Positions 26,773-57,077 of a stretch of 64,000 nt of DNA are shown piece after piece. How positions within the stretch are numbered: the stretch's first letter is position 1; every line of letters starts with the position of its first letter. This DNA comes from Oikopleura dioica (Eukaryota > Animalia > Chordata), in NCBI GenBank assembly GCA_907165135.1, contig OU015566.1:12958001-13022000 (forward strand). The letters are read 5' to 3'. The notes under the pieces are model-generated. The model ran no database searches and was not told the DNA's origin. It saw only the letters and a list, made by a program, of their open reading frames with translations. The position numbers and the translations under genes are program-made.

Positions 26773-27244
26773 TATTTGGTTCCCAATTTTGCTTTATTTT
26801 AATTTTTACGACTTGAAAATTTGAGTACTAAGCGTCGATTGAGAATATTAAAGCGCACAGCGTGTGATTTTTAAAAGCGGAAAAATGATCGCTGATCAAA
26901 TAATGGAAAGTTACAGTGATGCAGAACGGATTATTTACACACGGCGTAATCTCCTTGTTTCACTGAAACATAAATTATTCAGCTAAATTCGTAGCTGAAT
27001 TAAAAAAAAATACAATTCAATGATAAAAAAAACGTAAAAAATTGATGCCTTGTTCCTTCTTTTTGCTTAATTTCTCTGTTGCAATCGGTCCCAAGAATAT
27101 AGAATAAGGCTCAAAAAACATCTCGATATTATAATGAACTAGAAACGTTGTTTTTCTCTTATTGATTTGTCAGTAATCTTTCTCTTTCTTCATCTTGCTT
27201 TAGGTATGATATTTGAAGCACAAACCGAATTAGAAAATAATTTT

Positions 27245-30700: not shown

Positions 30701-30843
30701 TCAGACTTTTCAAATTCGACGACGAAACCGAAATCAAGAATGTTTTTTTCTATCAAAATCAACAGAGTCAGATTCTTGTTATCTTATCTGAGCCAGCTGA
30801 GTTACCACATTCATATGCTTTGTTTGGAAATGGTTTTAAAAAC
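27685..30843 (+). pseudogene. 5' part of a secreted Cys-rich / Thr-Ser-rich / Kelch-like protein gene, interrupted by the giant transposon
   Basis: Hydrophobic leader, Cys-rich domain (C..CFG..CPFQKYCSKGCPCPHYQC), S/T-rich stalk, further exons. The last exon ..SYALFGNGFKN continues in frame at 57078 once the element and one TSD are removed. The 28.8-30.4 kb part may include other gene fragments. Confidence 0.6.
30836..30843 (+). repeat. Left target-site duplication TTAAAAAC
   Basis: Identical 8-mer immediately precedes the left terminus GAG and follows the right terminus CTC (57070-57077). Confidence 0.85.
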
Positions 30844-31558
30844 GAGGGCACCGTATTACTGTACATGTAATATTGTACAGTGGAAAATTGTATCACTGTA
30901 CTTGTATTAGTGTACAGTATCGTATCACTGTACTTTTCCCTGTGAACTCAAAAGTACAAACTTACAATGTACAGTGATACAATACTGTACACAAATACAA
31001 GTACAGTGATACAACAGCAAAAAATTTAAAATCGCGAATTTACGGGGCTAGGATTTTTTTTTTTTTAAAATTATTATTTAAAATTCAAATTTACAATATA
31101 TTTTTTTCATACAATTTTTATTTAATGCGCGCGGCGCGCGCAAATCCCTACTTTTTAATAATATAAATGAACTAAATTAAAAAAATACAATAAATTATAT
31201 ATAATTTCTTATACAATTTTTATTTAATGCGCGCGGCGCGCGCAAATCCCTACAATTTATATTCCCAAATTTAACAAAATATGGGGGGACTATATTTTGG
31301 TAGCTAGGGGCGGGGCGGGGGTAGATTACACAAGGGCTATTTAATGATGGCCTATATAGCGTTTTTCACGTTTTTTCCCAAAAGTGTGTTTTATTGTACT
31401 GCAAAAAAATAGAATTTATGCCCCAAATTCTAATAAAATAGGGGGACTATATTTTGGTAGCTAGGGGCGGGGCGGGGGTAGATTATACAAGGGCTATTTA
31501 ATGATGGCCTATATAGCGTTTTTCACGTTTTTCCAAAAGTATGTTCTTCCGTACTGCA
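30844..31558 (+). repeat. Left terminal inverted repeat (~715 bp, modular)
   Basis: Array of TACAAGTACAGTGATACAA motifs in both orientations (30850-31015); two ~100-bp AT-box+GCGCGCGGCGCGCGC units (31110, 31212); two ~185-bp units with GGGGACTATATTTTGGTAGCTAGGGGCGGGGCGGGGGTAGATT..GGCCTATATAGCG. Inverted match to 56332-57069. Confidence 0.92.
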
Positions 31559-31858
31559 GACAAAATAATAATTCCCACTTCTGACTTTCTAATAGCTATT
31601 TTTCTTTTCAATTCAACTGCAAAAATGCGATATTGTGTACTGCTGAAAATTTATTTTTTTCGTTTTAGACTAGACATGAAAGAGCAATTCTGCTGACAAA
31701 TGAAGAAAACTCGAAACAAAATTTGAAACACTTTCTATGATCTTCATAATGCTCGTTGATAATTAAAGTTCGGCCTTGGCAGAGGCTTTCGGTTCCTAGA
31801 GCAACAAATCCGATCACAAGAACTTGGTTTCTTTTGTTTATTCATTTATTCATTTTTA

Positions 31859-32408
31859 TCATTCAGGCTCATTCTCTGTCTGGCTTAAAAAGTCAGTTTC
31901 CGTAGATAACAGCACTCCACTTGTCTGCCTGAAGCGCCGTCCCATTCGCAAGTTTCTTAAACGAGATGTTATTGGTCCCCATTTCGCGCCTACCAATGAT
32001 TCATCCGATGCGTCCGGAGTCTCTTCGATCTCATAGGCTTCCAACTTCACACCTTGGCTTCCACTGTCAGTTTCCACCCGACCTTCGATTTTAATGTAGT
32101 CGCCAAACTATTTTTAGTTATAATTTGTAAATTGAACGTCTGATTACCTTGAACTCTTCGAGAAGTTCGTTTTTGCCAGTGACCTTGATTGTTTCTTCGC
32201 CATCAGTGACTACGATGGACTCGCCTCCACGTGCAATATCCCAGATCTTGCAGTACAGTATTGCAAGGTTGTCTTTGTGCTTAATAAATAGCTTAGCTTT
32301 CTCATTGAGTCTTTAATATTTTAAAATCGCCCAAATTACCTCTGCGATGTTCGCAGCGCACACAAGCTTTCGCTGCTGGAACTTCCACGATGGAATGTCA
32401 GGGAACAT
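31859..32408 (-). CDS. RPA3/RPA14-like single OB-fold ssDNA-binding protein (3 exons)
   Basis: Spliced MFPDIPSWKFQQRKLVCAANIAE-HKDNLAILYCKIWDIARGGESIVVTDGEETIKVTGKNELLEEFK-FGDYIKIEGRVETDSGSQGVKLEAYEI resembles RPA14 ([43 protein letters not shown]), alignment by eye. Confidence 0.6.
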
Positions 32409-32521
32409 TGATTGAAGATCGGCATCAGTGTTAGTCATTCTGAATATTTAATTTCAAGCGTTTTTTGTCGTCTTTCTGTTTTCAAATTTGAAGTACACGA
32501 GAAAAATTATCAGCGAAATTT

Positions 32522-33373
32522 TTACTTCTCTCTTTTTCGAAGTATTCGATGTAAGTGGCCATATCCAGGTTCGGCTGCCACCGCCAAAATTTTTGTCGAA
32601 TGACTAAGATTAATATTTTTAAATACTAGCTTTGTTTTTTTGTTTATACCTTCAGCGGTTCTTTTAATTGCAACAATCGGCTCATCTTTGTTCTCCGACG
32701 CAGCGATGACGATGTTTCCTTGGAAGATTTTTTCTGCTTGATCTTCAATTTCCATGGGCACACAGTTATGGACGTGTTGTTGTTCATGAAGCCCAGCTTC
32801 TTCCGGATCAAGGGGATACGCCGAATTGCAAAACGAAGGTGCTTCCTTTTTGCTTATCTTGAAGTTTTTCGTTACTTCTTTTTCGTCCGCAACAATGACT
32901 GCACTTGGACGGAAAATTTGAAGTGATTCAAGACCAACGCACGTCTCATTTGCGCAGCACATGAGCATTTGTTGCTTACTTAAAGAAGTTACTATCTTAA
33001 AGTCCTTTTTATTTGTGTTACCTCTGGATGTAAGCGAACGGTTTCAGAACGACCGTAAACTGATAGTTGGCGTCAGTATTTATCCATTTGCCATCAGCCG
33101 TTTCTTGGAGGTCGTAGCTGAATGCGCATCGTGGCTCCCAATCCATCGTGATCCAAGTTTCGCCCATAGACCGCTGGACATCAGGATTGATTTTGATAGT
33201 CGTAGCGAGCATTTTTTCTTTTGTGACCTAGAATTAATGGTTATTTATTTAATACAGTGATATTTTCATAGAAATTTTATATAAGGCGCGCTGCGCGCGC
33301 GATTGCGTTATCTTTTCGTTACCTTCTTCGTCTGGCGCTCCGAAACAACTGATTCGTTCTTAATTTTATCCAT
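32522..33373 (-). CDS. Orphan cargo protein (~235 aa, 3 exons)
   Basis: MDKIKNESVVSERQTKK|VTKEKMLATTIKINP..YIQS|KQQMLMCCANETC..RKREK*; in-frame GT-AG splices. Confidence 0.55.
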
Positions 33374-33420
33374 TTAAGTGTGCAATCAAACGACGTAGAA
33401 GGTGTTTTTTTTTTTCAGTT

Positions 33421-34138
33421 TCAAAGAATATAGTTTTCCAATTCGAGCATGATCACGCCCTGCAAATCGTCGAAATCCTGGGCATACTTTCGAAGCTCGG
33501 TAATTGGTCCATTCCGCGTCCCTTTATCTTTCCTTGGCTCCTAAAATTCTCTTCACTGTAAATGTATGACTGAGAGAAACGAAAAGGAGAATTTTTGCCA
33601 ATAGGTGCCTATCCTTGATCTTCTGTTTCAATTAATGCCGTAAGTCTGCTGGTCAACTCTTCCCCACTAGATAAATCTGTTAAATCGGCACTTATTTTCT
33701 GGTTATCTGATTACTTCAGCTTTTCTGCATTGACAAGCGATAGAAATACGTGAATATTCTGTCCAAGGCGTTGGATTTTTTTGCAGAGGATCTTCAGTTT
33801 CGACCACCAACCCTCTAAGAATATTAATATAGTTATTGAGGTTATCTTAAACTTTTGATTGTACTTACGGACAATATATTTAGCATCTTCAAGCTTCTTC
33901 TTTTCTTCATGGGTCATAAACTCGTTCTCGTTTTTGGTTTTGAGATGTTCTTTCGCCGAATGAACCGACTTAGCGAGTGAACATTTTTTTTTTCTCTCAG
34001 TCAATCACTTATTGAATTGAGTTCACTTTCCTCAACAACTTGTCGCATTCCGATCATGGCCGTTGACTCGGGCTCGAGTCGCGAAAGAATAAGCTTGGCA
34101 ACCACGAAACCTTCCACGTCTGGGTATGTTTCTGTCAT
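33421..34138 (-). CDS. Orphan cargo protein (multi-exon)
   Basis: Exons MTETYPDVEGFVVAKL.., KKCSLAKSVH..KFKI, GLVVETEDPLQ..CQCRKAE, EPRKDKG..ELENYIL*; splice sites partly uncertain. Confidence 0.4.
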
Positions 34139-34353
34139 AGTACTAAGAGATCAACCGCGCAAATCAGTTCTGAAAATAGGAAAGTCATTTTCTATTTTCT
34201 ATTTTTTCTTTCAACCGGTATCTTTCTATCTGTAAAGGAATTATAAGCAAGACTTGCTTATAAAATCCTTTAGATCCGTTCATAAGGGCAGTGTTACAGT
34301 TATCTTTCAACAATTCAAACGGGTTCTTTCTTGATCATAAATCGACGTTTCGA

Positions 34354-35303
34354 TTAATCCATTTCGAGTACGAAGTCAGCGATTTTGGTGGTTGTTTTCG
34401 TAAACGAGATGTGAATTTTTTCGTCGACAGTAACTGTTCCCTCCTCCGAATTTTTTGCTGCAGCGGAGAGCGACTCGGTCCACCTAAAATTTAAATTTAC
34501 TTGGTTTTATTTATCTATGCTATTTTACTTTTGATTCAATGAAAAGCTCGCATCCTTGATCGCTTTTCCATCTTTTGCGGTGATTGTCACGGATTTTACG
34601 GGTCTAGCTGGATTAAAAGTCCCGTCCAGAGCATTTCCAAGTGATTCCGAATTTGAAAAGCGGAGTTTTTGGTTACCAGAATCTACCGCGATCTTCAGGG
34701 GGAAAGCCACAGACGAAGGAAGTTGAAAGCAGTTGCTGTCGAGCTTGAATTCTCCGCTAAATACTAAGTTATCATTTTTTTTTTCTTTATGTTGCTTACG
34801 TTTGCTTTCCGTACGATGGCAGCTTGTCTTCCATTTTCACGAGAGTAAGCGGCGCCACGTGACAACTGACGAGGGCGCAAAGATTGTAATCTGCTACCAG
34901 CTCTCGTCGAAGAACCAAGTTGAAGTTCTTGTCAACAGTTACCTCCCATTTGAGGCAGCAGTGTTCACCTGATGCATTGACCGATTCGATAAGTTTCGGC
35001 GTTGAGACTGAAAGTGATTATCTTTTTATTCAATATAAAAAAAATATAAATACCTTTAACTGCGAACGTTTCGCAGCAAGTATACAGCTTGAACTGTGTC
35101 GCGTCGAGCTCGACACAAACACGATTCAAACCCGCTTCATCGCTTGTTTCGATTTTGATCCCACTTGGAGTGAAGATCATCTTAGTTTTGTACCCAATCT
35201 TCGCAATCGGTGCTAATTTTGTTCTTATTTCGACTGGTTTGTTGTAAGCAGCCAAAAACATCAGTCTAGAATAAGGAATTTCAGTCATCTTAGAGAGACT
35301 CAT
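34354..35303 (-). CDS. Divergent full-length PCNA-like sliding clamp (clamp 1; 4 exons)
   Basis: IFTPSGIKIETSDEAGLNRVCVELDATQFKLYTCCETFAVKV ~ PCNA [48 protein letters not shown] ~ VSDYEM; KLRFSNSESLGNA ~ GVKFSASGELGNG. All splices are canonical and in frame to TAA at 34354. Confidence 0.78.
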
Positions 35304-35312
35304 CGTGGATCA

Positions 35313-35968
35313 TCACAAAAGGCTTTCAAGGACATTCTGAGTGTGCACAGACGATGTAATCTCCACGACTGAAAGTTTATCGTGAAGCCTTAACAGTTTG
35401 TCAATTAGAGACGTGGCGTTATTTTTCTCCTCGAAAAGCTCAGCGAGTCGTTCAATCTTTGCTCCATCACTAGAAATTCGTCACTTTGATAAGTTTTCAT
35501 TTTAAAAAGTACGTTTTATCGCAACTCTACAGTTTAATTATTATTTCTCATACTATTTTTATTTAATGCGCGCTGCGCGCGCACTTTTACACTCAATTAG
35601 CCTATCTTTACCTTAATTGCTCGTGATGAATGAGAGACAGGAAGATGAGAAGGTTTTTCCCAAGCACGCTGGTCTCTGCACCAATTTCATCGATCTCCTT
35701 GGTGTACTTTTCTACTCTCTTTTTAGCAGCCATTTTTTCTGTCGTTAATCTTACCGAGCGAAGAAATTCCATTGTTAACTTTCTGGATGTACGAAGCTGG
35801 CTTAGATTCTGATTTCATTTGTTCAAACATTTCTTTCGCGCCTTCAATGTTGTTTTTCAAGTCTCTTCGCCTTTTAACGATATCGTTTCCGGCTGGCAAA
35901 AATTGTTTTACAATCTCGTTTGCAGTTTTCAGTCCGTCTGTCCAGTCGTATGCATTCACAGTGGCCAT
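35313..35968 (-). CDS. Orphan helical/coiled-coil cargo protein
   Basis: MATVNAYDWTDGLK.. ORF, further exons ..EIDEIGAETSVLGKNLLIF.. and ..IERLAELFEEK..ESLL*, ending 9 bp upstream of the clamp-1 ATG. Confidence 0.4.
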
Positions 35969-36331
35969 TCTGAAGATATACTCGATTATTTTTACTCAAG
36001 TTAAAATAGAAATAAAATTATCTTTTGAACTTTTGGAGTCAGATATGTGTGAAACCTTTTCAATGGCTTGCAAGTTTAAAGGTTTTCCCTTCTTTTTTTT
36101 TTCCTTTTACCGTAAAAAAAACGCACACAGTGAAAATAATAATGATCATTTGATCTTGAGGAACTTTTGGCCGAGGCAGTTGGGTGCTGAGCGTTAAGGT
36201 TTTTTTTTTTGAAAATTGCAAGCGTACAGTTTGTGCCTTTTCCGTTTATCTACCTAGGGAGTTTTTATTTCTCCGCCGTACTATAAATGAAAGAACACAA
36301 TTTAGTTTAGCTAGTGAGGAAAAAATTGGAA

Positions 36332-37072
36332 CTAATGAAGGTATGGGGTGCGGCAGACGGCGCAATATGTCCATCGCTCGATCCATCGCAATGCGCATGC
36401 TTTGTCAACCTTATGTGAGCAATTTTTGAATCGGATGAGTGGCTCCTTGAGTTCCATTTGACAAATTTGACAGATCTCTTCTTCCTGGATATTTTGAGGA
36501 GTCAAAGTGTCGCCAATCAGTCCTTCGAGCCGACCTTTGTATTCGTCCGAAGCGCGAAATTCAGCTCGCCAAAGATCGCCCAAGAGTCCTTCCATAGTTC
36601 GGCTTTCTGGATCGATTAGTGGAATATTTTGTGGATAGCTTGTTTGCGGTCGTTTGAGTTTGCTTTATTACACTCAAGCACGAAAAAGGCATATTTTTTT
36701 TTCAACTCAAAAGACCTTTCCTGTTCAATCCAAATGGATTGTTGATAATAGCTTCGTAGAAATGGTTGTAATTGCCATCATTTTGATTGTCCACCGTGCC
36801 GACAACATTCCGATCGTCGAGTTCTGGCCCTTTTCATGATTTAACAAGTCTTTTTTATGGCTAAGATCTGATAAAATTAAAAAAAAAAAGAATTCTATAT
36901 ATTGAAGTTTTGTCCTTCCTTGAAGTGGCTGTGTGGCGGTGGGCAACTCAGCAGGGTTACGAAGAACAGGTGGATCCTCTCCATGCACCTGTTGAGTGCC
37001 ATCTTCTTGATGATTCTGAGCGGGTCCATTTTCCGCCGGGATGTTTCGATTCAAGTCAAAATTATCACTCAT
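36332..37072 (-). CDS. C-terminal RING-finger protein (putative E3 ligase)
   Basis: CQICQMELKEPLIRFKNCSHKVDKACALRWIERWTYCAVCR (RING-H2-like, one ligand replaced by Asp); upstream exons from 37072. Confidence 0.7.
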
Positions 37073-37457
37073 TCCCCTTTCAAATGTCTGAATAAAAGTT
37101 CATTAGTTAAGTTCGAAATTTATCCTGGTAATATATCTTTGATCACAGTGAGCTTTGATAAGACTGAAGGATTTAAAAATTTGTTTGACTGTCATTATGC
37201 TGAGTGAACATGATGTTGTTACAGTTTTACTAACAATAAGCATAGCTTTTAGTTTGAACTTTGTTTGGCAGTTGGGCAGGGGGGGGGGAGCAGAAAATAA
37301 TCATAAAGTGAAAAGGCCGATTTACATTTCCTTGACTCACGAAGGAGAAGGCCCGACTTTAAAAACTTTATGATTTTGAAAATGGGGTTTAGAATTGGTT
37401 TTCGTATTTGGCAGTTGGTAAAAAATCGTGAGGCGCGAAAGTTTTGTTTTGAAACCT

Positions 37458-39013
37458 TTATGCGTTCTCGTCGGATTCTCGTCGAGGTCGTTTTTTGTCG
37501 CGTCGGGTCTCACGGCTGTTCTCATCCGTTTTTTTTCCTGGCGAGCACCCGGCAGAGTTGTTCTTCTCAGATGGCTCGTATTCAATGTTGTTGTTCTCGT
37601 CAGGCTTTTCATTCTCTTGTTGAGCCTTTTCGTACGCACTCATCCCGGAGTTTCGATCATCATCGCTCTCGCCTTCTAGCAATGGAGTTTTTTCCCCCTC
37701 CTGCGGCTGTGGAGTCGAAGAAGCCGTCGCGTGAACACGAATGAAACGAGTTCGTAGTTGATCATCCCATTGATCATCGCCCATTTCACCATAACAGTGC
37801 ACATCTTCGCTTGGCAGCGGTTGGGTGAAAAGAGTGGTGACCTGAATTAGTGCATTAATTACTAAATGTATGTAATACGCCGTACCGATAGACCACGAAT
37901 GCTGATTTCAATTTTCAATGGGTTATTCGCCATATCGATTGTCATTTCGATTGCCATGTCGGCTTCTTCGTTGCGGCAATACTCAGCAAGCGCTTTCGCA
38001 TATTTACGCAGGCAACTTAACTTTTGTTTTAGTTTTCTAATCGGGAAAAAGAAGAGTAAAAATTCGAGATTATGAAATAGTTTTTCTTTCAAGAGAAGAA
38101 CAAACTTAAAAAATTATTGTACAAAATGATTACACGCGAGAATAAAAGCGCTGTGCAAAGAAAATTGATCTTTGCGCGTCTCACGGTTGCATTAATGATG
38201 TATTCCTATACAATTTTTTATTTAAGCGCGCAGCGCGCGCGAGACCCTTATATTAATTCAATGCTAAAATTGAAAGCTTGCTACCTTGTGATGATATTCG
38301 CATGCGTTGAAACTCCGTCAGGAATCACTTGCACAGCCGAGTCTCCATTTGAGGCGAAGACTTTCTTGATTCGCTGTCTGGAATTTCCATCCGACATGAA
38401 TTCGAGGTTCGAAGTAATCGGAAGAATTCTAATGGTCGTAATATCGCCGCCTTCAAAAGGAAGACGATAAATGAAATTATTAACCATAAAAACGCATACC
38501 TAAACCCATTTTTTCACTGGCAGCGCAGAAGCTATTCGCTGGCATGAGTACAAGTGGGTTCGCTGGGTCTGACATTAAAGCTGGTGGCTCGCGGACTTCT
38601 TTTGTTTTCAGATAGAAAACATCTCCGGCTTCACTATCGGTTACAGAAACACGAAGGAAGCCATCAAGTGTCTCGCCAAGAACCAGTTGCACAGACTTCT
38701 CTCCTTCGTTCGCCACGAAGCCAATGAGTTTTTTAAGGTCGACTAAATTTCGTTATTTATTCTGTCTTAGTTTTCCCCTTTTAGAGAGAGAACCGGGCTT
38801 ACCTGAGAAAGAACGAATGATGAAGTTGGTGTTCTCATAGTTGAGGAGTCGGTCCTGGTGGTAGATGAGGTAACAGGCGGCGTACCTGTCTTCCTCGAAG
38901 CCAACAAAATGGAGAGAATCATGCGTCGCCATGATGTTAAGTGTATCACTTGTGCTTTCCATCAATAAAAGAGCACGATGAAATTGATGGGCACTTGGAA
39001 TGAACGCGTTCAT
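37458..39013 (-). CDS. Divergent sliding-clamp subunit with acidic disordered tail (Rad9/PCNA-like; clamp 2)
   Basis: FHRALLLMESTSDTLNIMATHDSLHFVGFEEDRYAACYLIYHQDRLLNY ~ clamp N-domain (Rad9 [26 protein letters not shown]); VLMPANSFCAASEKMG ~ PCNA [42 protein letters not shown] ~ clamp C-domain; splices in frame to the tail exon 37458-37846. Confidence 0.62.
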
Positions 39014-39107
39014 GTCTGAACTTTAAAATAGTTAATTTTCTGTTACTTGAGCTGTTTTTCTCTGTTGTTTTGAACAGATCAGCATTTTCACAATTTCTTC
39101 ATGTCTG

Positions 39108-39560
39108 TCAGTCTGATTGTTCCTCCTCGTCGTCGACTTTCTTGATAAATCCCCTTAAATTGGAAAGGATTTGCTCGCCGAGGGCGGGCTTCAACTCCAA
39201 GCTGAGCGTTCGTTTTGCTGTGTCCGCTTTACATAAAAGCCGCATAATCAACTTTTTCGCCAGCAAATAGCCTTCCCATTTTGGCCTACAAATTGTTATT
39301 AAATGAATAAGTTAGTAAGACTTACAGTTTGGAAAGAATCGCCAGCATAAATACGTAAAGTCGATAATGCGAATCGGCGTCTCGGAGCTCCTTCCATTCT
39401 ATTTTGAAGACATCGAAGCAATGATCAGCGGTCTCGCTGAACGTTACAATAATTCATCAGCATCATAAATCGATATCACATGATATTGTTCTCTTAGCTA
39501 GTCCTATTTTTGATTGACCTACTTTTTGAAGTCCTTGAGTTCTTTTAGACGATCAAACAT
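39108..39560 (-). CDS. Small orphan cargo protein
   Basis: MFDRLKELKDFK.., ..DVFKIEWKELRDADSHYRTLRIYAG.., ..LLAKKLIMRLLCK..DDEEEQSD*; lies between PriS and clamp 2. Confidence 0.4.
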
Positions 39561-39621
39561 TTTCAAGTGAGTCGTGAATCAGACAAACAATCAGATCTGA
39601 ATATTAAAAAGATGAGAAGCA

Positions 39622-41707
39622 TTAGGACGAGTAAGAAGCTTTTTTGTAGCGCTGCAAAAGAATTGTCTGAAACAGATGGACGAATTTTTCACATAGCGCT
39701 TCGGTTTTTCTGAGGTTGAAAACTGTCGGGAAACCCTTTAGGTCCAATTCCGTTGTCAGCAGGGGGTCGAAAACAACCGCGACTTAAAAAAAAAAATATA
39801 TGAGTACTTCTCGTTTCCAATGATAATTACTTACTGGCTCCTGTATCCTGGTGGACGCTAAAGGGCATTCTCAATAAATGCTTATGATTGGTAAGCACTG
39901 GCTTATCTAATTTCGGATAGAGATGTCGAAGTTTGATAACGCGCAGTGAATTTTTGTCAAGCTGGTCGTTGTTCTTTAGTCGTTGTTCGATCACATTCCA
40001 TTTCTGGTCCGTCGTCTTTTGTTCCATAATCTTTTCGACCAGACTTCTCTTGACAGACTCAGTCAGCGCTGTAAAGCTTAGCAATTTCATTATTCTTTCT
40101 TGAAGCTCCAGGAGGCCTTAATTTTCATTCAAATGAAGTTCAGAGAAAGCGATGCTCACCTTGTTTACATAAAAAGTCCACCCAAACTGTGTCGATAATT
40201 TCCTCCGCTTTTCTTAATGACGTGTGGTACAAATTGCCGTTTCCATAGTACATTCCTTCGATGTTGATATATCCGAATAACGCTCTGCGATTGTACTCAT
40301 CGGATTTTATGTATTCTTCGTCGAGGATCCAGCAATGAATGCCTTTTTTCCCGCTGAATACTTAAAAAGATTATATTGATTTTGCATGCAATACTATATT
40401 TAACGCGGCAGCGCCGCGAAATGAAAAAGGATGTAAAAGAACTTACCCCAGAAAAAATGCTTGAAACCGAAATCTTTTCGAAGGATTCTGTCCAATATTT
40501 TTGCCGCGGTTCGAAGAATAACCCAGCAACTGGAGCAAATCGTATCTTCTTTACAGCACGTCTTATATGTATATGAGCTGATATCGATGTCAAGCGTGAA
40601 CTGAACAAATATGAGTGGATAAAAGCCATAAGAAATCATTTATTCTTCTGCTTATTTTAGTTTCCCCCTTTTTTGTTCCCCTAAATTTGGCTTCTAGAAC
40701 GCAAAGAGTGGCAATTGTTTTCGTTTTACATCAGCAAAAAAGATGTTTTTGTTTTTTCAACGATCAACAAATTCTAGAATTTGATGAAGATACGAAACCA
40801 GTGCCATTTTGATAGATTTTACTGTTTTTTCTGAAATATTTCGATTAATATCGTTTAAATAGATTTCTCTTTTTTAAATAAAGGTGAAGAACTCCTCAAT
40901 TTTGTATCCTATGAGAAAGAAAATGAGTTCTGTCATTAATTTCCCCGTAAAAAAACAAAATTCCGAATTTAAAGCAAAAAATTTTAACCTTGTACGGAGT
41001 TTTTACTCTTTATTTTTAGATTATATGTTCAATCGACGTCATCTCCGGTTAATATAGAAATTTTAAAATAATCGAACCGTTGAAATTCTCAAAAACTCAC
41101 TTTTCCCGAACATTTTGAGAAGAACTGAATATTACGTAGTAATTCTAGATTCTAGAACAAAAAATGTTTTTTTTTTTTTACGTTTAACCTACCTCACGCG
41201 CCAAGAATTCATCTATGTGGATATTTCGATATTTGCCCGATGGCTTATAACATCCTCCAAGGTCGACTCTTATCGGGCGCTTCTTTCGAAGATAATCGAA
41301 GAATTTCGGCTCATCGCGGAAGATGTTTTCGTTCCGCCTCACAATACCACTTCGGTCCTTGAAACTTATGAGCCTTTTTAGCAAAGAAATTTTATCAAAA
41401 CTTACAATATATCTCTCTGGCCGATTCTAAACGTTTCGCCGCACGTAATGAACAGTGCGAGCTCATCCACTGGGCAGTGAAAGAGGTAGTATTCTTCAAG
41501 CTCCCTATCATTCGGCTCTTTTGGGCGATTGCATGCTCGTATTCCACTACTATCCTGCGAAGAGTGTTCTTTTTCGGTTGTCTTGCTATTAAAAAAGTCG
41601 TTTATTTCGGAAAAAATGCATTCGTTGATATACCTTTTGAACTTTTTTCTAAATTCTTGCGCAAGACCTCCTTTCTTCTCGCAAATTTTGTTTACAGCTG
41701 TTTCTGG
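39622..41707 (-). CDS. Archaeo-eukaryotic DNA primase small (catalytic) subunit, PRIM1-like
   Basis: LEEYYLFHCP, RPIRVDLGGCY, E|FTLDIDISSY..CCKEDTICSSCW (motif I DxD + Zn site), [21 protein letters not shown] (motif II), LYPKLD..HLLRMPFSVHQDTG (motif III); colinear with PRIM1 over the whole length. The start is uncertain (may be fused to clamp 3, up to 42564). Confidence 0.92.
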
Positions 41708-41729
41708 CATATTTCTGCTTGACTCGGGA

Positions 41730-42564
41730 GCTGTATTCTTATCGTCCTTTGAGCTTGGAGGCGGCGTTCCAGGTACCCTGAAGGGAGAATCTGTTTTTTC
41801 TTGGCGACTTGGCGAGGTGATTACATTGACGACAACGTTCTTGTTATTCGTCCCTTTTGGTTCTTCGTCGTCGCTATTGGGGTATAATTGAATACTGCAG
41901 TGATTTTCTACTAACCTTTCACCTGAAATCACTATGATGTCTGCATCGACGGTCAGACCAATTTTGTCCATTTCTTTTGCGAGAAACTCGTCATTAAAAA
42001 CGTGGAACTCGCGCTGCACTCCTCTGCTTGCGGGACGATCGTTGTCCATGCAACTAAGCACGGCTGTTAAACAGAAAAAAAAAACACAGCGAAATTAAAT
42101 TAATTTACCGTTCTAATTTTTGTTTCACAGTAGGAACAACCGGGGGCACAATAGAAGCACAGCGTTTAGGAATTTGAAGCTCTGTTTCTTGATTTTTTCC
42201 GATCGTCCTTATCATTACTTTTCCGTTTAAACTGTCTGCAGCAGTCAATTGGAGTTCTTCTTCGACGTCGCTGACTCTAAGGAACTTCCAGAAAGAATCG
42301 GCGGGCACTAGTAATTTTTTTAATGATGGGCCTTTCTAATTCACTCAATAACTTACGAATTACTGAATCTCCGATATTGTTTATAGCATAGCTTTTCATC
42401 ATGTCTTCACAAAAGAAAAATTTTCTTTCAATGTCATTTCCGCAGAGCTCATAAAGGTACAGCCCTTCATTGTGGAAAATTAGCAGGATATCGCAGTCCT
42501 CTATAATAGAGGATTCATGAGAGCCTACAAACTGAGCTATGCTTCGAAAAGCGGCGAAACTCAT
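41730..42564 (-). CDS. Third sliding-clamp-like gene (clamp 3), possibly fused to PriS
   Basis: DILLIFHNEGLYLYELCGNDIERKFFFCEDMMKSY (clamp N-domain pattern); FNDEFLAKEMDKIGLTVDADIIVISGE ~ PCNA [37 protein letters not shown] ~ GNGNIKLSQTSNVDKEE. One junction needs a non-GT donor. Confidence 0.45.
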
Positions 42565-42690
42565 GTCTTTAAAATAAGAAAATTATTTTTTTAATCTATA
42601 GGAACTATCAAGTTTTTCGCAAAAAAAAAATAAAAAAGAAAATAAAAACAGAGGGGCAGTGAACTCTCGCAGACTACATTTTACATCGTT

Positions 42691-43720
42691 TTAGTCGAGA
42701 TTGATTGTCTTCTTTCCCTTAAAAGGGGGTTAGATTACAGAGTGATGTTTAAGATTTACCTCGGAGATACATCGGGAAGATGGGCCCGGTCTATTGATGT
42801 CCTCTGCTTGAGTTTCTTCGTCAGTTGACTATAATTTTATTAGAACAGGCCCCTCTTGCTTTAAGTTTTTTGCTTTTCTCGGTTCATAAATACAAGTACA
42901 GTGATACAATACTGTACACTGATACAAGTACAGTGATACAATGGCGAAATTTTAAATCCAGATTAAATAAGATGTTTAACGCTTTTACCTGCGAGTAGCT
43001 GAGAGAAGTGTGGTCTCGAGCACCCATAGAGCGGGTCCATGGCCGGTTGGTAGTTTGAGAGCCAGTCTTATTTATCGTGTAAATATGTGATATTACATGA
43101 AGATCATACCTGATCGTTACCGCCTTCTTTTTGCTCCGCAATCTTCTTGGTTTTCGTCGTTCGAGTGTGATCTGTGACCGGGAGAACACTGTTGATCGTG
43201 GGCTGGTCGCTTGGTCTGAATTCTCGTTTATGGACGAGGAAAACGACTGACAGAAATAACACGAACGCATACCTCTTCCCTCGACCGGCAGCAGGTTTGC
43301 TTGTCAAATCGCGGATTCGCTTACGGAGTTGTTTGTTCTCCATCTCGAGGAAGCTGATGCGTCCAAGTTTTTGAGAAAACTCACTCTGTAGCCCTTAATG
43401 GGAATTATTCAGTATAAATCGCATTTTTATTTGTTCTTACCTTTCACGAGATCGTTCGCGTCTTTGTGCCATGGCAGCGACACATAATCTGCCTAGATAT
43501 AGATAAATTCGATAGTCAATGTATCAGAACTTACAAAATACGCTGCCTTGCGACAGAATGCGCACTTGATCTTGGCTTCTCTTGCTTTGCGGCATTTTTT
43601 CAAGCATTCACCGCAAAAAATTGCACCGCAGCCAGCGCACATCTTGGGATCCTTCACCGCGAAGTGAGTTGGAACCAGGCTACAATCTAAGGCAGCTTGC
43701 AGGGATGAAAACGCTTCCAT
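42691..43720 (-). CDS. RING + coiled-coil + transmembrane protein (putative membrane-anchored E3 ligase)
   Basis: LDCSLVP..CAGCGAIFCGECLKKC..KCAFCR spliced in frame (TTT|gtaagt..tag|GCA) to a heptad coil LEMENKQLRKRIRDL and TM YAFVLFLSVVFLV; further small exons end at TAA 42691. Confidence 0.65.
42886..42970 (+). repeat. Internal relic of the element's TIR (left-end orientation) inside an intron
   Basis: TACAAGTACAGTGATACAATACTGTACACTGATACAAGTACAGTGATACAATGGCGAAATTTTAAATC matches rc of 56850-56925; a weaker relic lies at 44937-44970. Confidence 0.8.
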
Positions 43721-44142
43721 TTTGAATCCGTGAAACGTTGTCGGCGGAAATCAGCTCTCTTTTTCCTGCTTTTGATTGGTTTGAAAAATCACGAGTGAGA
43801 AGTAAAAAGTCTCTCTCGATAACCTTGTTCATCTCTCGGCTCGAAATAACGACGCTTTCGGGATTGGAGTTGCAAAGTATTTTTGGCCCGAAACTACACT
43901 CACAACCATATTTTTTTTCTCTGATTTTCTAACTACTACACTCATAACTAGTTCTCATTACTACACCGCTTTTTCTAGATCAAATAAAAAGACATTTGTT
44001 TTTTTTTTACAGAAAGGTTTTATTTTGCAGCCACTTTGTGAGAAAAGGGCGCAAGAAAGATTTCTCAGACTTGACAGGAATTTACAGCTGGAAAAAAAAG
44101 ATGGTGTTGTTTCACAGCGTAAAAGTCGGTCGTTGGAGCTTT

Positions 44143-44810
44143 TTATGAAGTCCAATTCTTTCCTCGGATCTCCAATTTGCGTCCAGAAGAGCTCTGAATC
44201 ACAACGAGACATCGTTCGTTCACCAGGTCCTCGTAGAACTTTGTCGCGGGGGTGGTGTGACGAGCGATGATCCGTTCCAGGTCGGTCGCGACGCGTTCTC
44301 GGTCTTGTGGAGAGAGACCTGCGGTGAGACGCAAGAAGTACTCATCCTCTAAACAATTCGATTGATTTCGGGAACAAATAAAAAGATATAATAGGAATTA
44401 CCTGCAAAGCGGAGAGCACCACGGTTGTCGAGCTTCTCGCCATTTGGTGCGATGAAGCCAGGTTGCTGCGCAGCTGGCTCACCCTTTTTCTTCTCCTTGC
44501 CCTTGCCCTTGCCCATCCAACCTCGTGGAAGTTCGGCTGGGGGGGCTTGAAGTTGGTCAGCGCACCGTCGAAGGTCAGAAGCAGCTTTCAAAAGCGCGTT
44601 CTTCAGGGTGGTCGTTTTAGCGGCCGCGTTCTATAGACAAATTTAGTCCAAGGGGAATCAGACAATGCCACATGGGCGCTATCTTTGCAAAAAAAAAAAA
44701 AAGAAATGATTGATTACCTGGGAAACCATTTTTCGAAGTTTTGATCTTATCTCTGTTCTGAGAAAATCTAACTGAGCTGAAGGGACGCAAATGCCCAGAC
44801 GTCGAGCAAT
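44143..44810 (-). CDS. Orphan cargo exons (may be the 3' end of the repeat protein)
   Basis: NIARRLGICVP..KMVSQ|NAAAKTTTLKNALLKAASDL..LRFA|..LRLTAGLSPQDRERVA..KNWTS*. Confidence 0.4.
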
Positions 44811-45118
44811 GTTCTAGAGACTTTTTCATTAGCGAAGAAAAAGAATGCACTTTTTTTTTTATTTTGTTGGTTTCGAGACAAACAATTCTAGAAAAATTAA
44901 ATAAGCTCGATTTCTTAATTCTACGGTCAACCACTCAAGAGTACACAAATACGAATACACTGATACAAAGTCACACTAACCGAAAATTTCTAAAGATCAA
45001 TTTTTACAAAATGGGACACTTTCCCTGATAAGTTTCCTTATCAGTTGTTTGATTTTAATAAGAAGATTATTTATTACTGAAAAATATGAACTTTCAGACA
45101 AATAAAACAAGAAATAAC

Positions 45119-47580
45119 TTAATCTTCCATTTCTTCAGTCATGTCATCGTCATAGGCGACGAACATCTCGCCCAGGTTCATCGCCTTGTGGCCCTTCGTA
45201 ACCAAGAGAACGGCGAGATTTTCGTTTTGTTCCTCTTCGAGGAACTGTCGAATATTTTCAACGTATTGGTCCGAATCATTCAAGAATTCGGCGATGGCTG
45301 TCTCAACCAGCGGTGCGCCGTCGGCAACTAAACAAACCAATTAAGACGGTAGAAAAATGAAAGAGCGTACCTTGAACAAGAGGCCGAGCCCGCTGGCTGA
45401 TAACGATGCTCGAAGGGTCATCGAAACGACGCGGAACACCATCCTCGAAGACCACAGCGGCGCCTGGGCGATGATCGTGGTGGATGGCGGAAGCGAAAGC
45501 CGGGGCGAAATAGTTTCCGAAATCGGGTGAAATCGGAACAAAGCCTGCGTCTTCGCCATTCGTAGCCGTGGCATTCGATGTTCCAGCCACGGTTGCATTT
45601 GCGGACTCGTTGAACAGCCCAGAGATTCCACTAACAGTGGAGTTGGCGCGCTGCGAACCCATGCGAGCACGGTTGTTTTGGCCGGGTCGGCCAGCGATGG
45701 TGGAGTTGGCGGAGCCAGTTCCGTTGAACAGGGCGGAGATGCCACTGACGGTGGAGTTGTTTTGGCCGGGTCGGCCAGCGACGGTGGAGTTGGTGGAGCC
45801 AGTTCCGTTGAACAGGGCGGAGATGCCACTGACGGTGGAGTTGTTTTGGCCGGGTCGGCCAGCGACGGTGGAGTTGGTGGAGCCAGTTCCGTTGAACAGG
45901 GCGGAGATGCCACTGACGGTGGAGTTGTTTTGGCCGGGTCGGCCAGCGACGGTGGAGTTGGTGGAGCCAGTTCCGTTGAACAGGGCGGAGATGCCACTGA
46001 CGGTGGAGTTGTTTTGGCCGGGTCGGCCAGCGACGGTGGAGTTGGTGGAGCCAGTTCCGTTGAACAGGGCGGAGATGCCACTGACGGTGGAGTTGTTTTG
46101 GCCGGGTCGGCCAGCGACGGTGGAGTTGGTGGAGCCAGTTCCGTTGAACAGGGCGGAGATACCACTGACGGTGGAGTTGTTTTGACCGGGTCGGCCAGCG
46201 ATGGTGGAGTTGGTGAGGGGCTCGCCCAAACCGGACTCATTGTAGACGCCAGCGTCGAAGGTGGAGTCGGCTTGGTCGTCCATGGCGGAGTCGGCTTGGT
46301 CGTTGATGGTGGAGTCGGTCTGGTCGTCGTTAGACGAGTTCAAGGTGTATTCTCCCTCATGGGGATTTTCCTCGACTTCGGCGAATACCAGTCCAGAGGC
46401 GGATAAGGTGGAAATATCGCTGCCGTTGACGGTGGACATGGTATCTTCGGATGAGGACGAGTCGAGCGTCATCTCCCCTTCATAAGGATCCCGGGACACG
46501 TCGGGATCCACAAGAGTAGACTCGCCAGAACTAGTTTCTTCGTCGGTGGCGATAGAGCCATCGAACTCGTCTTGGAGGGAGCGTCCAATGGCGGAAGAAA
46601 CATTGGAGACTTCGTTGATGACGGGAGAGGGCGTGCGCTCAGGAGTGAGCTCGAACTCTGCAGTGGGCTCGTCGTTTGGAGTTAGCTCCATGGAGTCAAC
46701 GCCAGATCGACCAAGATAGTTTACTGGTCGAGGGAGGAAACCAGGTGGAGGAGGGCGGACATCACCATCGGCAGACAGGGCAGATGTTTGAGCCGTGTCA
46801 GGTTCCACTTCACCGACGACGGTGAGGGTGTCGACAGTGAAACGAGAGCCGATGGATTCGTCAGCGTGAATCGCAGAGTGTCCATTGACACTCTGGCCCA
46901 GAAGAACACTGGCGAGAAGACCAGATCGCTGTCCATTTAAGACGGAAGAGATTTCGTCGCTTCCAATCGAAGAAATCTCAGCGGGAGAGAGTGGAGGTCC
47001 ATCGGATCCAACTTGGGTAGAGTTCATTAACCCTTGGACAAGGGTCGCATTCGGCGAGGCGGTCGAAACAACAGAGGTGTTGGCTTGAGCCTCTCCTTCT
47101 TGCAAGATACTAGAAAAGAAAATAAAGAAAGGGTGTTAAAACCAGTAATATATACCTTTCCGGGAGGTTGGAGTCCGCGGGCACGTTGCGACGTTCAACA
47201 AAAACATTGCTCCATTCGCTTTCGTCGCGGATGGTGTTGCCAAGGGAAATGTCACCAAGCTGCTGCGGCTGAAGAGCGTTCGTGGCCAATTCGACTAAAA
47301 AAAAATATTTGTTTCTAGAACAATTCAAAATCATTGTTTTTGTATAATTGCTTTCTATTGCAATTAAGTTATCCATTGGCATACCAATGCCGTTATAACG
47401 ACTTGCTTAAAAGCACAAAAACCGCCATATCAATTGCATAAATAAAAACGCATAAAAAGACCATGAGCAGGTCAACTGGTGTGCCTGGTCAGCATAAAAT
47501 TGTAAAGATTTAGACTTACTTGAGGAGGGTGTTTCCACTTGAGAATCGGAACGTTGAGCCTCGAGAGAGTTGCGTGCCTG
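45119..47580 (-). CDS. Large low-complexity Ser/Thr/Asn/acidic protein with 28-aa tandem repeats
   Basis: 600-aa ORF 45303-47105 plus in-frame upstream exons (47157-47300, 47517-47580) and a downstream exon (VADGAPLVET..EMED*). True start is further upstream and uncertain. Confidence 0.7.
45675..46221. repeat. 84-bp coding minisatellite, 6 near-identical copies plus a partial
   Basis: Unit GTTCCGTTGAACAGGGCGGAGATGCCACTGACGG.. starts at 45718, 45802, 45886, 45970, 46054 and 46138; encodes STNSTVAGRPGQNNSTVSGISALFNGTG on the minus strand. Confidence 0.95.
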
Positions 47581-48116
47581 GGACTAAATGAGAATGAGGA
47601 AAAGAATGCTTATCATTTATTTTTAATTTGCATAGCATTATAACTCGAAATATAAAACGAATTTGCGCGCGCAGCGCGCACTCGATAAAAATTGTATAAG
47701 AAGTTATAGTGGATAGATAAATAATATTTTTAAATCCACTACGGAAAAGTGCTTAGGGACTTTATATCTTGCTCAACATCAATAGAGAATTTAACTCAAA
47801 AAACACAAATTAACAATCAAAAAGAAATAATTATGGTTTTCTTTATCTTAGCCTCTGGACTTGGGAACTTACTCGAGTGGTCATAGAATGACCAGTTGAG
47901 ACGATTGGGGCCATGACGTAAAGAAAGTGTCGCGCCTAAGCTGCGGATGAAAAAATTTATGAATTGACTCGTTTGAAATTGAGTCAAACACAAATGAATC
48001 CAGTTTTTTGCGAGGGGCACTCGTAGAGCCATCCTGAGCATCATTCTAGAGAATATTAGTGTGTATTTTCAAAAAAAAATAAATAAAAACAAACACATGA
48101 TCTAGAATTTTTTTTT

Positions 48117-48701
48117 TTACAATATGTATTTGTAGTCGATTGGATCGGTAGTTTCAAAAACAGTTCGATTCGAAGAGGTTTCGTTAAACGGCATGTTGGT
48201 TATGAAAGGATAAGAGGTGAGAGGCCAAGAAATGGGAACTCTACGTAAGCGCTGACACGATAAAACCCAACTAATAATGTCGTTTGATGTACCAGATCGA
48301 GGTTTGCCTTTAATTTGAATATGCATGGGGAATTTGGAAGTGAATAGAGCGAGAACGTGTATGGTCGAGGCATGAATTTCTGTATTGCAAGTCCAGACTT
48401 CGTTTGCATACGGCAAATCAGTTATCGGTTTGACAAAGTGAACGTATGCAACAAACTTATACCTGACCTCGCTAATTGACTTAGTGACATGGGTGGGAAT
48501 GATAATAAAACAACAGAATGGGAAATTCTCGGTGATATACTTGAGACGTTCGACAGTAGAGAAGTTTATCGTGATAAATTTTATATACGAAGACCTATTT
48601 TTAACGAGTAATTGTTGATTGAACAAGTATTTAAGAAAAGAACCATAATCACTCATAATCAGACGATTTTCACTAAAAAAAATCACCATAGAATGGGTCA
48701 T
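48117..48701 (-). CDS. Intronless orphan ORF; weak resemblance to a degenerate CRESS-type HUH Rep fold
   Basis: 194-aa uninterrupted ORF in AT-rich DNA; FITINF, CFII, YKFVAYVHFVKP, HIQI..SGTSNDIISW recall circovirus Rep motifs I-III, but the HUH His residues and the catalytic Tyr are absent. Confidence 0.4.
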   Translation of the reverse strand: MTHSMVIFFSENRLIMSDYGSFLKYLFNQQLLVKNRSSYIKFITINFSTVERLKYITENFPFCCFIIIPTHVTKSISEVRYKFVAYVHFVKPITDLPYANEVWTCNTEIHASTIHVLALFTSKFPMHIQIKGKPRSGTSNDIISWVLSCQRLRRVPISWPLTSYPFITNMPFNETSSNRTVFETTDPIDYKYIL

Positions 48702-51700
48702 TTTTTTCTTGCTGACCTTCGTAAAATAGGAACAGGCTTTGTGTCACATTTTTTTCCCGAAGTACTGTTGGCCCCGGCGTCGCCAGTCGGAGATTTATCA
48801 TCTTTCATACCTTCCATCTGTCGAAGATCTCGGTAATGCGCCTTCTTCGAGCGAGTTCTTGCGGGGGAAGGATCATACTTGTCAGAAGTATATGCCGGCA
48901 ACGACGAGAGAGAAGATCGCGGGGTCGACTATGAATAATGCTCCACAAACACAAAAATAAATCAGAACACTTACATTTTGATTCTTGCCACCGCCCGATC
49001 CGTTCTTGGCTGCTTCTTCCGCCTGAACTAAGCAAGCATTGTTTGCCCCGGCGTTGTCAGTTGGAGATTCATCATCTTTCATACCTTCGAGCTGTCGAAG
49101 CTCTTGGTTATGCGCCGTCTTCGAGCGAGTTCTTGCGGGGGAAGGATCATACTTGTCAGAAGTCTTGCCAGAGCCTGATCCGTTCTTGGTTGCTTCTTCC
49201 GACTGAACAACTTCTTGCTGCTAAAATAACATTTAAAACAATTCAAGAAGATCACATTACAATGGAAACTTACATTTTGAAGAGCTGGAGCTTCTGTTTC
49301 ATCGTGAGATACAGCGGTAAAATCATTAGCGACTTTGTTTTCCCGCTGTCCATCATCATCTGCGGTCAGACCACGCAAACGGGCACGTCCTTCACGCAGG
49401 TACTCTTCCATGGCTTTCTTTTTCTTGATATAATGATCAAGCTTTTCCTCACCCTCTTTTAGAATCGTATTAGGAGAGGAAGCGCGGTCTTTCTCCGAAG
49501 TATCCACTTTCTTTTTGGGCGTCCTTTTTCTTCAGAACTCTACCTTCCTTTGCGGCCTTCTCTTCTCGAGCTTTCCTTTTCTTTTCCAGGCGTTCGTGTT
49601 CAGCAAGCTTCTTCTTATTATCCCTCTCGTCATCTCTAAGAGTTTGAGCCGCTTCTCTTTCCAATCTCTCTCGTTCCAAGCATTGTTCCATTGTAGGCTC
49701 AGGTCGACCTTTATCGAGGCATTTCAGGGCAGCCCTCACGTCTTTCACAGTTTCATTTTGATTGGAATCCGTAGGCAAAGTCTTCTCGATGTCTCGAATC
49801 TGACGGATACAATCAATTTCCGACATTTTAAGGCTATAAGAGCCGGGAACAATATCATCAAGTCGAACGTTCTTCTGGGGCACATACTTAAAATACATTT
49901 ATTTAGATACTTTGAATAACAATCAATGTTACCTGGGTTTTTCGGAGCGACGCATTTTCGCGTTTCCGACGATTAAACTCATGAGAAGCAAGATCGGATT
50001 TGTTGACCAATTCAAGCGCGGTATTAAAGCCTTGATTATCTGGATTTTGTCGATCAAAAGGCTAGACAATTTTCAAAAATAGAAATAAGAGCCAAACAAA
50101 CCTTTCGTAAATCAGTGCTAGCAGGCGAAGAAAGAAAAGGTATCTTCGAGGGCAAAATACCAGCAGCGGGATCGTGAAGCGTTGGTGATGGTGGTGCATT
50201 ACCCATTGAGAAGTTATCTTCTTCAGCATCGAAACATTCCAGGTCCTATATATTGTACTGTAAAGAAAAAAAGAAAAAAAAAATACCGTATCTTCCAATC
50301 TCAGTTGAGACTGATTCAAATATTCATATCCAGGGAGATATTCAGATGATTCTAGATCCTAAGAATCATAAATAAACATATTAATCATGAAAGTAAATAC
50401 CGGATCAGTTTGTCTCAACTGAGAAAGATTCAAATAGCCGCCGGATGAATCATGCTTGGAGGAGTAAGATTGAGAACTAGTTTCATCACTCTATCCAAAA
50501 ATGACGTGATTTATTTTTTTTTTATTTAACGGAAAAAAACAACTAACACCCTACCTTCTGCATCGTTGAAGGTGCATCGTTTGTAAAAAGATGTTCCATG
50601 GGGGCGGGATGAGTCATTGATTTCTTCGTCGATTCAATGACGACGCAAGGATCGCCCACCGAACCAGTTGAAAGATTCTGATGATGCTTAGACTTCTTTG
50701 AAATCTGTGCATGCTTAGCAATCTGATGGGAAATTCCAGTTCGCCCAGAGTCGGCATTCTCTCGCGTCTTTGACTTCGGCGTCTGCAAAGTCTTCACACG
50801 AGGATCATCCACCGAATCGGATGATACATTCTGATGATCCTTTGACTTCTCAGAAGGACCAGTAGAAGCAGGCATTGGTGCTTTGGAAGTTTTGAACTTG
50901 GAAGGACCATCAGACGAAGTAGTGACGCGTGAATTAGAGGTCTTGGCAGGCTGAGTATTTCGGTTTGTGGTGTTTACAGCTGGAGTTCCCATCGCCTTTG
51001 GATCTTTTTTTTGTATGGCGCTCGTCCCGCTGGTGTTAGGTGCTTCAGTACGATCATCAGCAATATTTTTCGCGCGACGAGATTGGCTTTTCGTGCGCCG
51101 TCGAAAATTATATCGGCTAGCATCTTGATCAGTTTGGGACGAGAACATTTGATTCCAGTCGTTAATATTACTCGCAATTGAACGAGCCATCTCTTCTTGA
51201 GCAGGAATCGTAACATTGGGCACAGTCATTTCAGGATCTTGGTCAATCTCAAAATTCAACACAGGCTCGTTAATTTGCATTCGAACGTTGCCATCACCAT
51301 CACGAAGAAACTCAGAACCAATCACAACTTCGTCGTTAATCTCTTCTTGAAACTCGTTTTCTTCTTCTTTCTCGTCGTAGTCGGGCTCGATTGGGCCAGG
51401 GAGTTGCACGCTTGGATCGTGTCTATTCGCCTCGTTCTGGATATGTTCGCTCGCGGCCCCTACGAACTTCGGAGGAAGAGGAATATCCAAATTTTTCTTG
51501 AGTAAATTCATTACACGTGCACGACGGAACAAATGACGCAAATCTTTATTAATTGTCTTCTTGGACGTTCGCTTAAAAGAATGGTAATAACATAATTTCA
51601 AGTAAAAAACAATACCAAAAATTCATCGGCGCAGTTGAGGAGAAATTGATGGAAAATTTCGGGCTCCACTTTGCCGTTTTCAGGCACCTGCTCGCACAAG

Positions 51701-56044: not shown

Positions 56045-56331
56045 GAAAAAGTCATGATTTTCCCCGGACAAAAAAGAAAGAAGTAGTAAGTTCTTTAGCC
56101 AGCCAATGAGAGAGGCGGAGCAAACGCGCGGGCGGTTTGAAAAAAAAAGGAAATGAAAAGATTACTCATGCAAGTACATACACAGCCTGGCATATAATTC
56201 ACAGCTACTGCCATAGATATAAACTATCTGACAAACGTTGTAAGTACCATGCATGTGGGCCGTCATTATGTACCCCTATTCTTCTTCTAGTTTCCGCTAG
56301 TATTATGCGGCAGAAATTCAACTTTTTCTTT

Positions 56332-57069: not shown

Positions 57070-57077
57070 TTAAAAAC
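57070..57077 (+). repeat. Right target-site duplication TTAAAAAC
   Basis: Directly follows the terminal ..GGGGTACTC. Confidence 0.85.

Follow-up and report, generated by a model that had tools for sequence, protein, structure and literature searches.

Transposases are known to use the clamps of their hosts (PMC5371812, PMC9690074). The excision of Mutator-like elements (MULEs) leaves a break, and the donor sites are mended by host gap repair (PMC5499845, PMC9690074). MULEs are characterized by long terminal inverted repeats (TIRs) and a target-site duplication (TSD) of 8-11 bp (PMC6446971), and the transposases of MULEs and hAT elements contain a DDE triad, with a W preceding the E and (C/D)xxH located 15-45 aa downstream of the second D (PMC5499845). 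Transposition becomes less efficient once the cargo exceeds about 6 kb, and the giant-transposon review in which this is stated mentions PCNA or a clamp 0 times (PMC6431247). Among viral clamps, a raised pI and a missing loader have been linked to direct, non-ring binding of DNA, and Hus1 is also basic (PMC3201878). The genome of Oikopleura dioica contains few transposons, has lost NHEJ, and is heavily rearranged (PMC12426944, PMC4122922); 44% of the repeats in an assembly of this species are unclassified (PMC8008620). Our literature searches turned up no DNA transposon of a eukaryote with clamp genes of its own, although the element described here may already be listed in larvacean repeat libraries or subscription papers.

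Transposons that borrow the clamp of the host are known; the element described here appears to carry clamp-like genes itself. The window, i.e., the whole stretch of 64,000 nucleotides analyzed (O. dioica assembly GCA_907165135.1, contig OU015566.1, positions 12,958,001 to 13,022,000 of the forward strand), contains clamp 1 at 34354..35303 on the minus strand, which, judging from sequence and structural modeling, is an orphan clamp-fold gene carried by an unusual Mutator-like element of 26 kb whose cargo includes replication genes. The element has the following features:

30844..57069, no strand assigned: Mutator-like element carrying clamp 1, 26,226 bp
30836..30843, plus strand: left copy of the target-site duplication TTAAAAAC, 8 bp; readable as 11 bp, with GAG after both copies
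30844..31565, plus strand: left TIR, identical to the right TIR in 645 of 695 aligned columns
51884..53264, minus strand: putative transposase catalytic core, 370 codons with no stop and five GT-AG introns; D..D..E, CxxH, and W
56324..57069, minus strand: right TIR, inverted repeat
57070..57077, plus strand: right copy of the target-site duplication TTAAAAAC, the same 8 bp

The TIRs are about 720 bp long, well beyond the 100 bp taken as the threshold for a MULE, and 92.8% identical. By motif reading, CxxH lies 25 aa past the second D of the transposase core and W lies 28 aa ahead of the E; none of the five core exons (51-88 aa), scanned singly, matches a transposase family, and the whole transposase gene probably spans about 56044-49470. 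The assignment to the Mutator-like elements rests on motifs and ends, the long TIRs favoring a MULE over hAT. The element is known from one copy and contains at least ten modeled genes, with all modeled cargo genes on the minus strand. It splits a host coding exon (30388-30843 and from 57078, plus strand), and when it is excised in silico, the host frame (from 30388, plus strand) continues for 40 codons; the host gene allele is probably disrupted by the element. A provirus was considered and set aside, as Pfam scans of the longer ORFs and chosen exons gave no sign of a capsid, terminase, or polymerase.

A TIR motif, consisting of a TATA-like AT stretch beside a GC palindrome, recurs inside the element at 33276, 35558, about 38215, and 47665. 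It has 7 matches in the window versus 0 in 100 shuffles, and some of the copies lie within introns or immediately 5' of genes, where they could possibly be transposase sites or promoters. In addition, the 22-nt repeat unit from the very end of the TIR is found again within the element at 42869-42969 and 44941-44969, which suggests a nested end or a composite history. A search with the 20-nt TIR unit gave one metagenome match (23 nt only, judged to be chance) and 0 viral matches. Ordinary host genes flank the element at 8712-23088 and 59120-60995 (trypsin-like proteases, BTB, dsRBD/WW, Band 7, DNA/RNA non-specific endonuclease, and BAH), and the host flanks hold MITE-like small inverted-repeat families at 1375-2619, 7550-7583, and 63080-63303; at 24463-24739; and at 27221-27781.

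Clamp 1 itself is composed of four exons and three GT-AG introns in a frame without an internal stop:

35054..35303, minus strand: exon 1, beginning with the ATG at 35303, although translation likely starts at Met15 (35261); encodes strands and the first helix of the N-domain, basic
35008..35053, minus strand: intron 1, 46 nt, GT-AG, GC 0.15
34800..35007, minus strand: exon 2, remainder of the N-domain and interdomain loop
34757..34799, minus strand: intron 2, 43 nt, GT-AG
34529..34756, minus strand: exon 3, C-domain; first C-domain helix shortened and without basic residues
34484..34528, minus strand: intron 3, 45 nt, GT-AG
34354..34483, minus strand: exon 4, includes the stop; the PCNA C-terminal Leu-Ala-Pro motif is absent

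The gene is real. Its region attains a simple gene-model score of 122.8 over 271 codons, compared with 24.6 ± 10.0 (maximum 62.4; longest model 147 codons) for 300 dinucleotide shuffles of the same region, none of which attains 257 codons. The last 259 residues of a public annotation, P0001 (label 'Oidioi...chr1.g3558, Oikopleura dioica'), are identical to the model, which means that the same three introns are used; the splicing was read from the DNA and this annotation, not from RNA. GC is 0.15-0.21 in the introns versus 0.42-0.49 in the exons, and the intron sizes fit the median of 48-51 nt for O. dioica (PMC8008620). When four RNA runs were compared with 29200-35450, the sole match was 33 nt in a host gene (two of the four runs); the lineage is apparently absent from these runs.

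The first-pass annotation had described four canonically spliced exons of a full-length gene encoding ~290 aa. The splicing is borne out by the GT-AG introns, the open frame, and the identical introns of P0001, and the full length by the intact frame and a predicted fold that covers both clamp domains. The size has to be corrected, as the model gives 271 aa if translation begins with the ATG at 35303 and 257 aa if it begins with Met15, and the 299 aa of P0001 are due to an upstream exon starting at 35733, which supplies the first 40 residues and overlaps a neighboring frame. The likely product is that of 257 aa since, in the alignment, residue 1 of PCNA falls on Met15, which is preceded by an AG 4 bases upstream. 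Trans-splicing at this AG is a guess, by analogy with the operons that occur in O. dioica (PMC4122922).

Sequence searches of clamp 1 against Pfam (0 families), the PDB, and PHROGs returned no match, and phmmer against 1.84 billion representatives recovered nothing but its own annotation. Likewise, P0001 was the only relative among the 14 candidates of a protein search with exon 1, and no relative was present in 196 pattern stretches of metagenome contigs, 23 of viral contigs, or the phage collection.

On the strength of one external predicted model and weak profiles, we regard it as very probable that clamp 1 has a clamp fold. The ESM Atlas model of the protein has a pTM of 0.68 and a pLDDT of 0.66, and all 10 of the structure neighbors listed are PCNA/Rad1-type clamp clusters (TM 0.66-0.73), a RAD1-like cluster having the top TM by query (0.73). 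These matches extend over 239-258 residues, beginning at residue ~43 and running to the C-terminus, and include both domains. The feature neighbors in the Atlas are divergent, mostly viral PCNA clusters scoring 0.92-0.94, the best of which (0.94) has 199 of 256 features in common with clamp 1; the structure and feature searches count as one source.

For the profiles, giant-virus PCNAs were fetched by a short motif, and 47 of 76 ORFs were kept after near-duplicate removal. An HMM of these 47 sequences gives clamp 1 a score of 12.6 bits, which is reached by 0 of 200 shuffles and, in a second run, by 0 of 500. Compared with 46 viral PCNAs, the N-domain attains a z of 7.0 (0/100 shuffles) and the C-domain a weak z of 2.3 (2/100 shuffles), so that the alignment to PCNA along its length, as originally claimed, holds by sequence for the N-domain and weakly for the C-domain, both domains being covered in the Atlas matches. 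The sole NCBIfam match is the archaeal sliding clamp (E 0.012, 15.1 bits versus a cut-off of 207). With hhalign, the probabilities were low (3% and 14%). The single-sequence AlphaFold model of P0001 was of low confidence (pLDDT 39); Foldseek returned no match for it at E ≤ 0.001, and the best VIA hit (Z 7.2) was a generic sheet, with no clamp among the best 50 rows. The Atlas TM values, the viral HMM, the NCBIfam match, and the N-domain z support the full-length clamp fold of extreme divergence that had been described, at ~14% identity.

Clamp 1 is not a canonical PCNA. It falls below all PCNA family cut-offs (Pfam, NCBIfam), its gap-free alignment to residues 7-91 of a PDB PCNA chain contains 12 identical residues out of 85 by eye count (~14%), and its identity to the 46 viral PCNAs is 14% on average and 17% at most. 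Its net charge is +2 and its pI is 8.04, compared with a charge of -20 ± 5 and a pI of 4.35-5.97 for those 46 proteins; the basic residues are concentrated N-terminally, with 6 K/R versus 1 D/E in residues 1-30 from Met15. Among the inner-ring basic residues of PCNA (K13, K14, K20, K77, and K80), only position 13 is basic in clamp 1, and positions 15 and 21 are Lys. The region of K164, the ubiquitination site of PCNA, is a loop with a two-residue insertion, in which one Lys is located two places off.

The PDB chain used as a reference falls in the same score class as 1AXC, which is treated as human PCNA (PMC8191301). The human PIP pocket is formed by H44, V45, L47, V48, I128, Q131, Y133, A208, P234, Y250, A252, and P253 (PMC8191301), and with the C-domain register set by eye, clamp 1 is identical at 1 of these 12 positions (V48) and conservative at ~3. 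H44 is replaced by Gly, V45 by Leu, and L47 by Arg, and outside the pocket list M40 is replaced by Ser; in the same by-eye register, Pro234 and P253 are absent, and Y250-L-A-P is replaced by Val-Leu-Glu-Met. All 47 of the 47 viral PCNAs contain Leu-Ala-Pro, which is partly due to the fetching pattern, and also in 8 of 8 viral PCNAs fetched by the N-terminal pattern alone. Clamp 1 should therefore, by its residues, bind PIP boxes poorly, and it is unlikely to lure away the PIP-box proteins of the host as a decoy, as the first-pass annotation had suggested, because most PIP-pocket residues are replaced and both Leu-Ala-Pro and Pro234 are absent.

Clamp 1 is accompanied by further cargo genes, among which are two more clamp-like genes, one of them apparently joined to a primase:

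31859..33212, minus strand: 360-aa gene; C-terminal part OB-fold-like, by eye only
36332..36595, minus strand: small RING-finger protein, Pfam zf-C3HC4 at 24.1 bits (cut-off 21)
37458..39013, minus strand: clamp 2, five exons, intact 380 aa; two putative clamp domains and an acidic tail of ~118 aa with a basic stretch at the end
39622..42564, minus strand: putative fusion of a clamp-3 N-domain to a PRIM1-type primase, eight exons, seven GT-AG introns, linker, intact 674 aa
42884..43720, minus strand: second RING-like gene, below Pfam cut-offs, best E 0.007-0.02

The domains of clamp 2 attain z values of 3.7 and 3.1 against the viral PCNAs. In the Atlas, every one of its structure rows is a clamp, and Rad9 clusters make up 22 of its 30 feature hits (best 0.92); clamp 2 thus appears Rad9-like by language-model features, a call that may be driven by its tail. 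Its only relative among 138 candidates is its own annotation, and none is found in six viral stretches (0/6). The third clamp is, according to the exon model, not a separate gene but an in-frame fusion to the primase: its C-part, the linker, and the start of the primase are contained in one exon (42053-41406), and the fusion depends on that model. Its N-domain has a z of 3.5 and its C-part, with a z of -0.2, has no clamp signal; by HMM the N-domain signal is weaker, 29 of 500 shuffles reaching the score. A heterotrimer of clamp 1 with clamps 2 and 3, as had been envisaged, is doubtful because clamp 3 shows a signal in the N-domain only. When clamp 1 is compared with clamp 2 or 3, between 73 and 473 of 500 shuffles reach the score; the three clamps are no more alike than shuffles and are not recent duplicates.

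The primase part of the fusion retains the DxD motif, the zinc cysteines, and the region of the third Asp, and its best PDB hits are eukaryotic primase small subunits (E 1e-10). A search with a primase exon gave no public protein (three candidates) and one weak viral locus without PCNA. Two introns are unusually long for this genome, namely 41192-40601 (592 nt) in the primase gene and 38284-38016 (269 nt) in clamp 2, the latter holding a copy of the TIR motif. The 360-aa gene has no significant Pfam match on the scanned exons and is not clamp-like, 96 of 200 shuffles reaching its score. A low-complexity protein of ~720 aa with 84-nt tandem repeats is found at 45119-47382 (minus strand). The stretch 48249-48656 (minus strand) resembles by eye a rolling-circle Rep (HUH) fold without its catalytic residues; the resemblance gained no support, with no Pfam or PDB match and an AlphaFold pLDDT of 37.

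A loader or helicase motif was not found in any modeled frame of the element. Walker A has two matches in the six frames, neither of which is in a modeled coding frame, and three motifs of family-B polymerases have 0 matches, intron-split motifs being liable to be missed in both searches. The element proteins contain no recognizable clamp-binding motif and no canonical PIP box.

We propose, with slightly less than even confidence, that clamp 1 is not a second host PCNA but a clamp subunit private to the element, which binds DNA and supports DNA synthesis primed by the element. The private processivity clamp suggested by the first-pass annotation is plausible in this form, being favored by the apparent in-frame fusion of a clamp domain to a primase and by the basic pI. 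Whereas the loss of the PIP pocket argues against host PIP clients, the fusion of a clamp domain with a primase suggests partners within the element. An open frame at ~14% identity would imply long selection on the clamp 1 protein. In the proposed mechanism, clamp 1 would grip DNA via its basic N-domain helix, either alone or paired with clamp 2 or with the clamp domain of the primase fusion; it could be assembled into a closed mixed ring with the help of the host loader or act as an open, loader-free clamp. The clamp would hold the primase of the element on single-stranded element DNA exposed in transposition or donor-gap repair, and host polymerases would then copy the 26-kb element from those primers. 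Such primed synthesis on long single-stranded element DNA might raise the copy number of the element. A bolder reading, which we consider rather unlikely, is that the locus represents a new giant self-priming DDE transposon in an animal, in which a Mutator-type transposase is combined with a private heteromeric sliding clamp, with the primase in one subunit, priming copy-out or gap-filling without a polymerase, loader, or capsid of its own.

Clamp 1, as a Hus1-like subunit, and clamp 2, as a Rad9-like subunit, could instead form or poison a ring of the 9-1-1 type or tie up the host loader, whereby damage signaling would be damped or repair would be steered at transposase breaks, with the RING proteins adding ubiquitin control. 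The Rad9 clusters among the feature hits of clamp 2 (22 of 30, best 0.92) and the RAD1-like cluster at the top TM of clamp 1 (0.73) fit this role, as do the raised positive charge of Hus1 and Rad9 (PMC3201878), the direction by 9-1-1 of MMEJ, on which O. dioica relies (PMC12426944), and the anti-host genes, e.g., vanC, that are carried by MULEs (PMC6446971). Charge does not separate a private clamp from a 9-1-1 mimic because Hus1 is basic as well. However, neither P0001 nor P0002 has a Pfam match to Rad1, Hus1, or Rad9 (HMMER filters drop weak matches), most feature hits of clamp 1 belong to PCNA-like viral clusters and the signal in its sequence is of the PCNA type, the Rad9 call for clamp 2 may come from its tail, the third clamp has no detectable second domain, and the intact primase is left unexplained. 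Checkpoint mimicry is, in our view, unlikely.

It is quite improbable that clamp 1 is a passenger that contributes nothing to the mobility of the element, whether as a gene captured long ago (from the host or from a virus) or as a piece of another, nested element. Gene capture is known for MULEs (PMC6431247, PMC6446971), and the TIR-derived motifs inside the element, at 33276, 35558, 47665, and 42889-42942, suggest a mosaic history; however, the cargo of Pack-MULEs consists mostly of gene fragments in elements under 7 kb (PMC6431247), whereas here no stop interrupts the transposase core, the primase, or any of the three clamp-like genes, all of which have canonical introns, and the cargo is enriched for one process. 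A neutral copy would, we infer, break long before reaching 14% identity. Finally, a canonical homotrimeric PCNA that confers processivity on host Pol delta via PIP boxes, or a decoy for PIP-box proteins, would agree with the full PCNA length and with the gap-free N-domain, in which D41, F57, Y60, and C62 are retained, and with a Leu-Pro near the position of I128-P129, but is very unlikely given the changes of M40 to Ser, H44 to Gly, and L47 to Arg, the absence of Pro234 and Leu-Ala-Pro, and the lost acidic surface. The remaining probability is reserved for roles that we have not thought of.

An animal cut-and-paste element with clamps and a primase of its own would represent another means of overcoming the limit that size sets to DDE transposition. 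Clamp 1 also offers a natural clamp, by its predicted fold, from which the PIP pocket has been dropped, and both clamp 1 and the clamp-primase fusion are easy to express and test.

Compared with known systems, clamp 1 resembles PCNA (Pfam PF00705 and PF02747; PDB 1AXC type) in its length, its predicted two-domain fold, and its gap-free N-domain. However, it differs from PCNA in its ~14% identity, its replaced PIP pocket and C-terminal motif, its pI of 8.0, and its location in a transposon. The loader-less viral PCNAs (Asfar/Irido-Asco/Marseillevirus, PMC3201878) and the herpesviral UL42, UL44, and BMRF1 share with it the clamp fold (predicted here), the raised pI, and, at the level of the element, the lack of a loader motif, and the nearest Atlas feature clusters of clamp 1 are mostly viral divergent PCNAs; the element differs from them in that neither a motif of a cognate DNA polymerase nor a virion gene was found and in its host-type introns and cellular-type primase partner. 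The 9-1-1 clamp (Rad9-Hus1-Rad1) is paralleled by three mutually unalignable genes of putative clamp fold, one long-tailed and Rad9-like and one basic. Contrary to 9-1-1, the genes of the element have no Pfam match, the third clamp consists of one supported domain fused to a primase, and all are located in a mobile element.

Giant DNA transposons such as Polinton/Maverick, Teratorn, and Helitron (PMC6431247) also combine an integrating enzyme with DNA-replication cargo, and Teratorn has a primase; the present element differs from these in its Mutator-type DDE enzyme, and no polB, helicase, or capsid was found in it. With MULEs, including Pack-MULEs, VANDAL/Hiun, and the RING-bearing Ghost clade, it shares long TIRs, a TSD of 8-11 bp, a DDE enzyme with CxxH and W, and extra ORFs, among them one for a RING protein. 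Unlike these, it extends over 26.2 kb, compared with 1.4-10 kb in 322 arthropod MULEs (PMC13359780), and comprises at least ten modeled genes, in which replication genes are carried whole and not as fragments.
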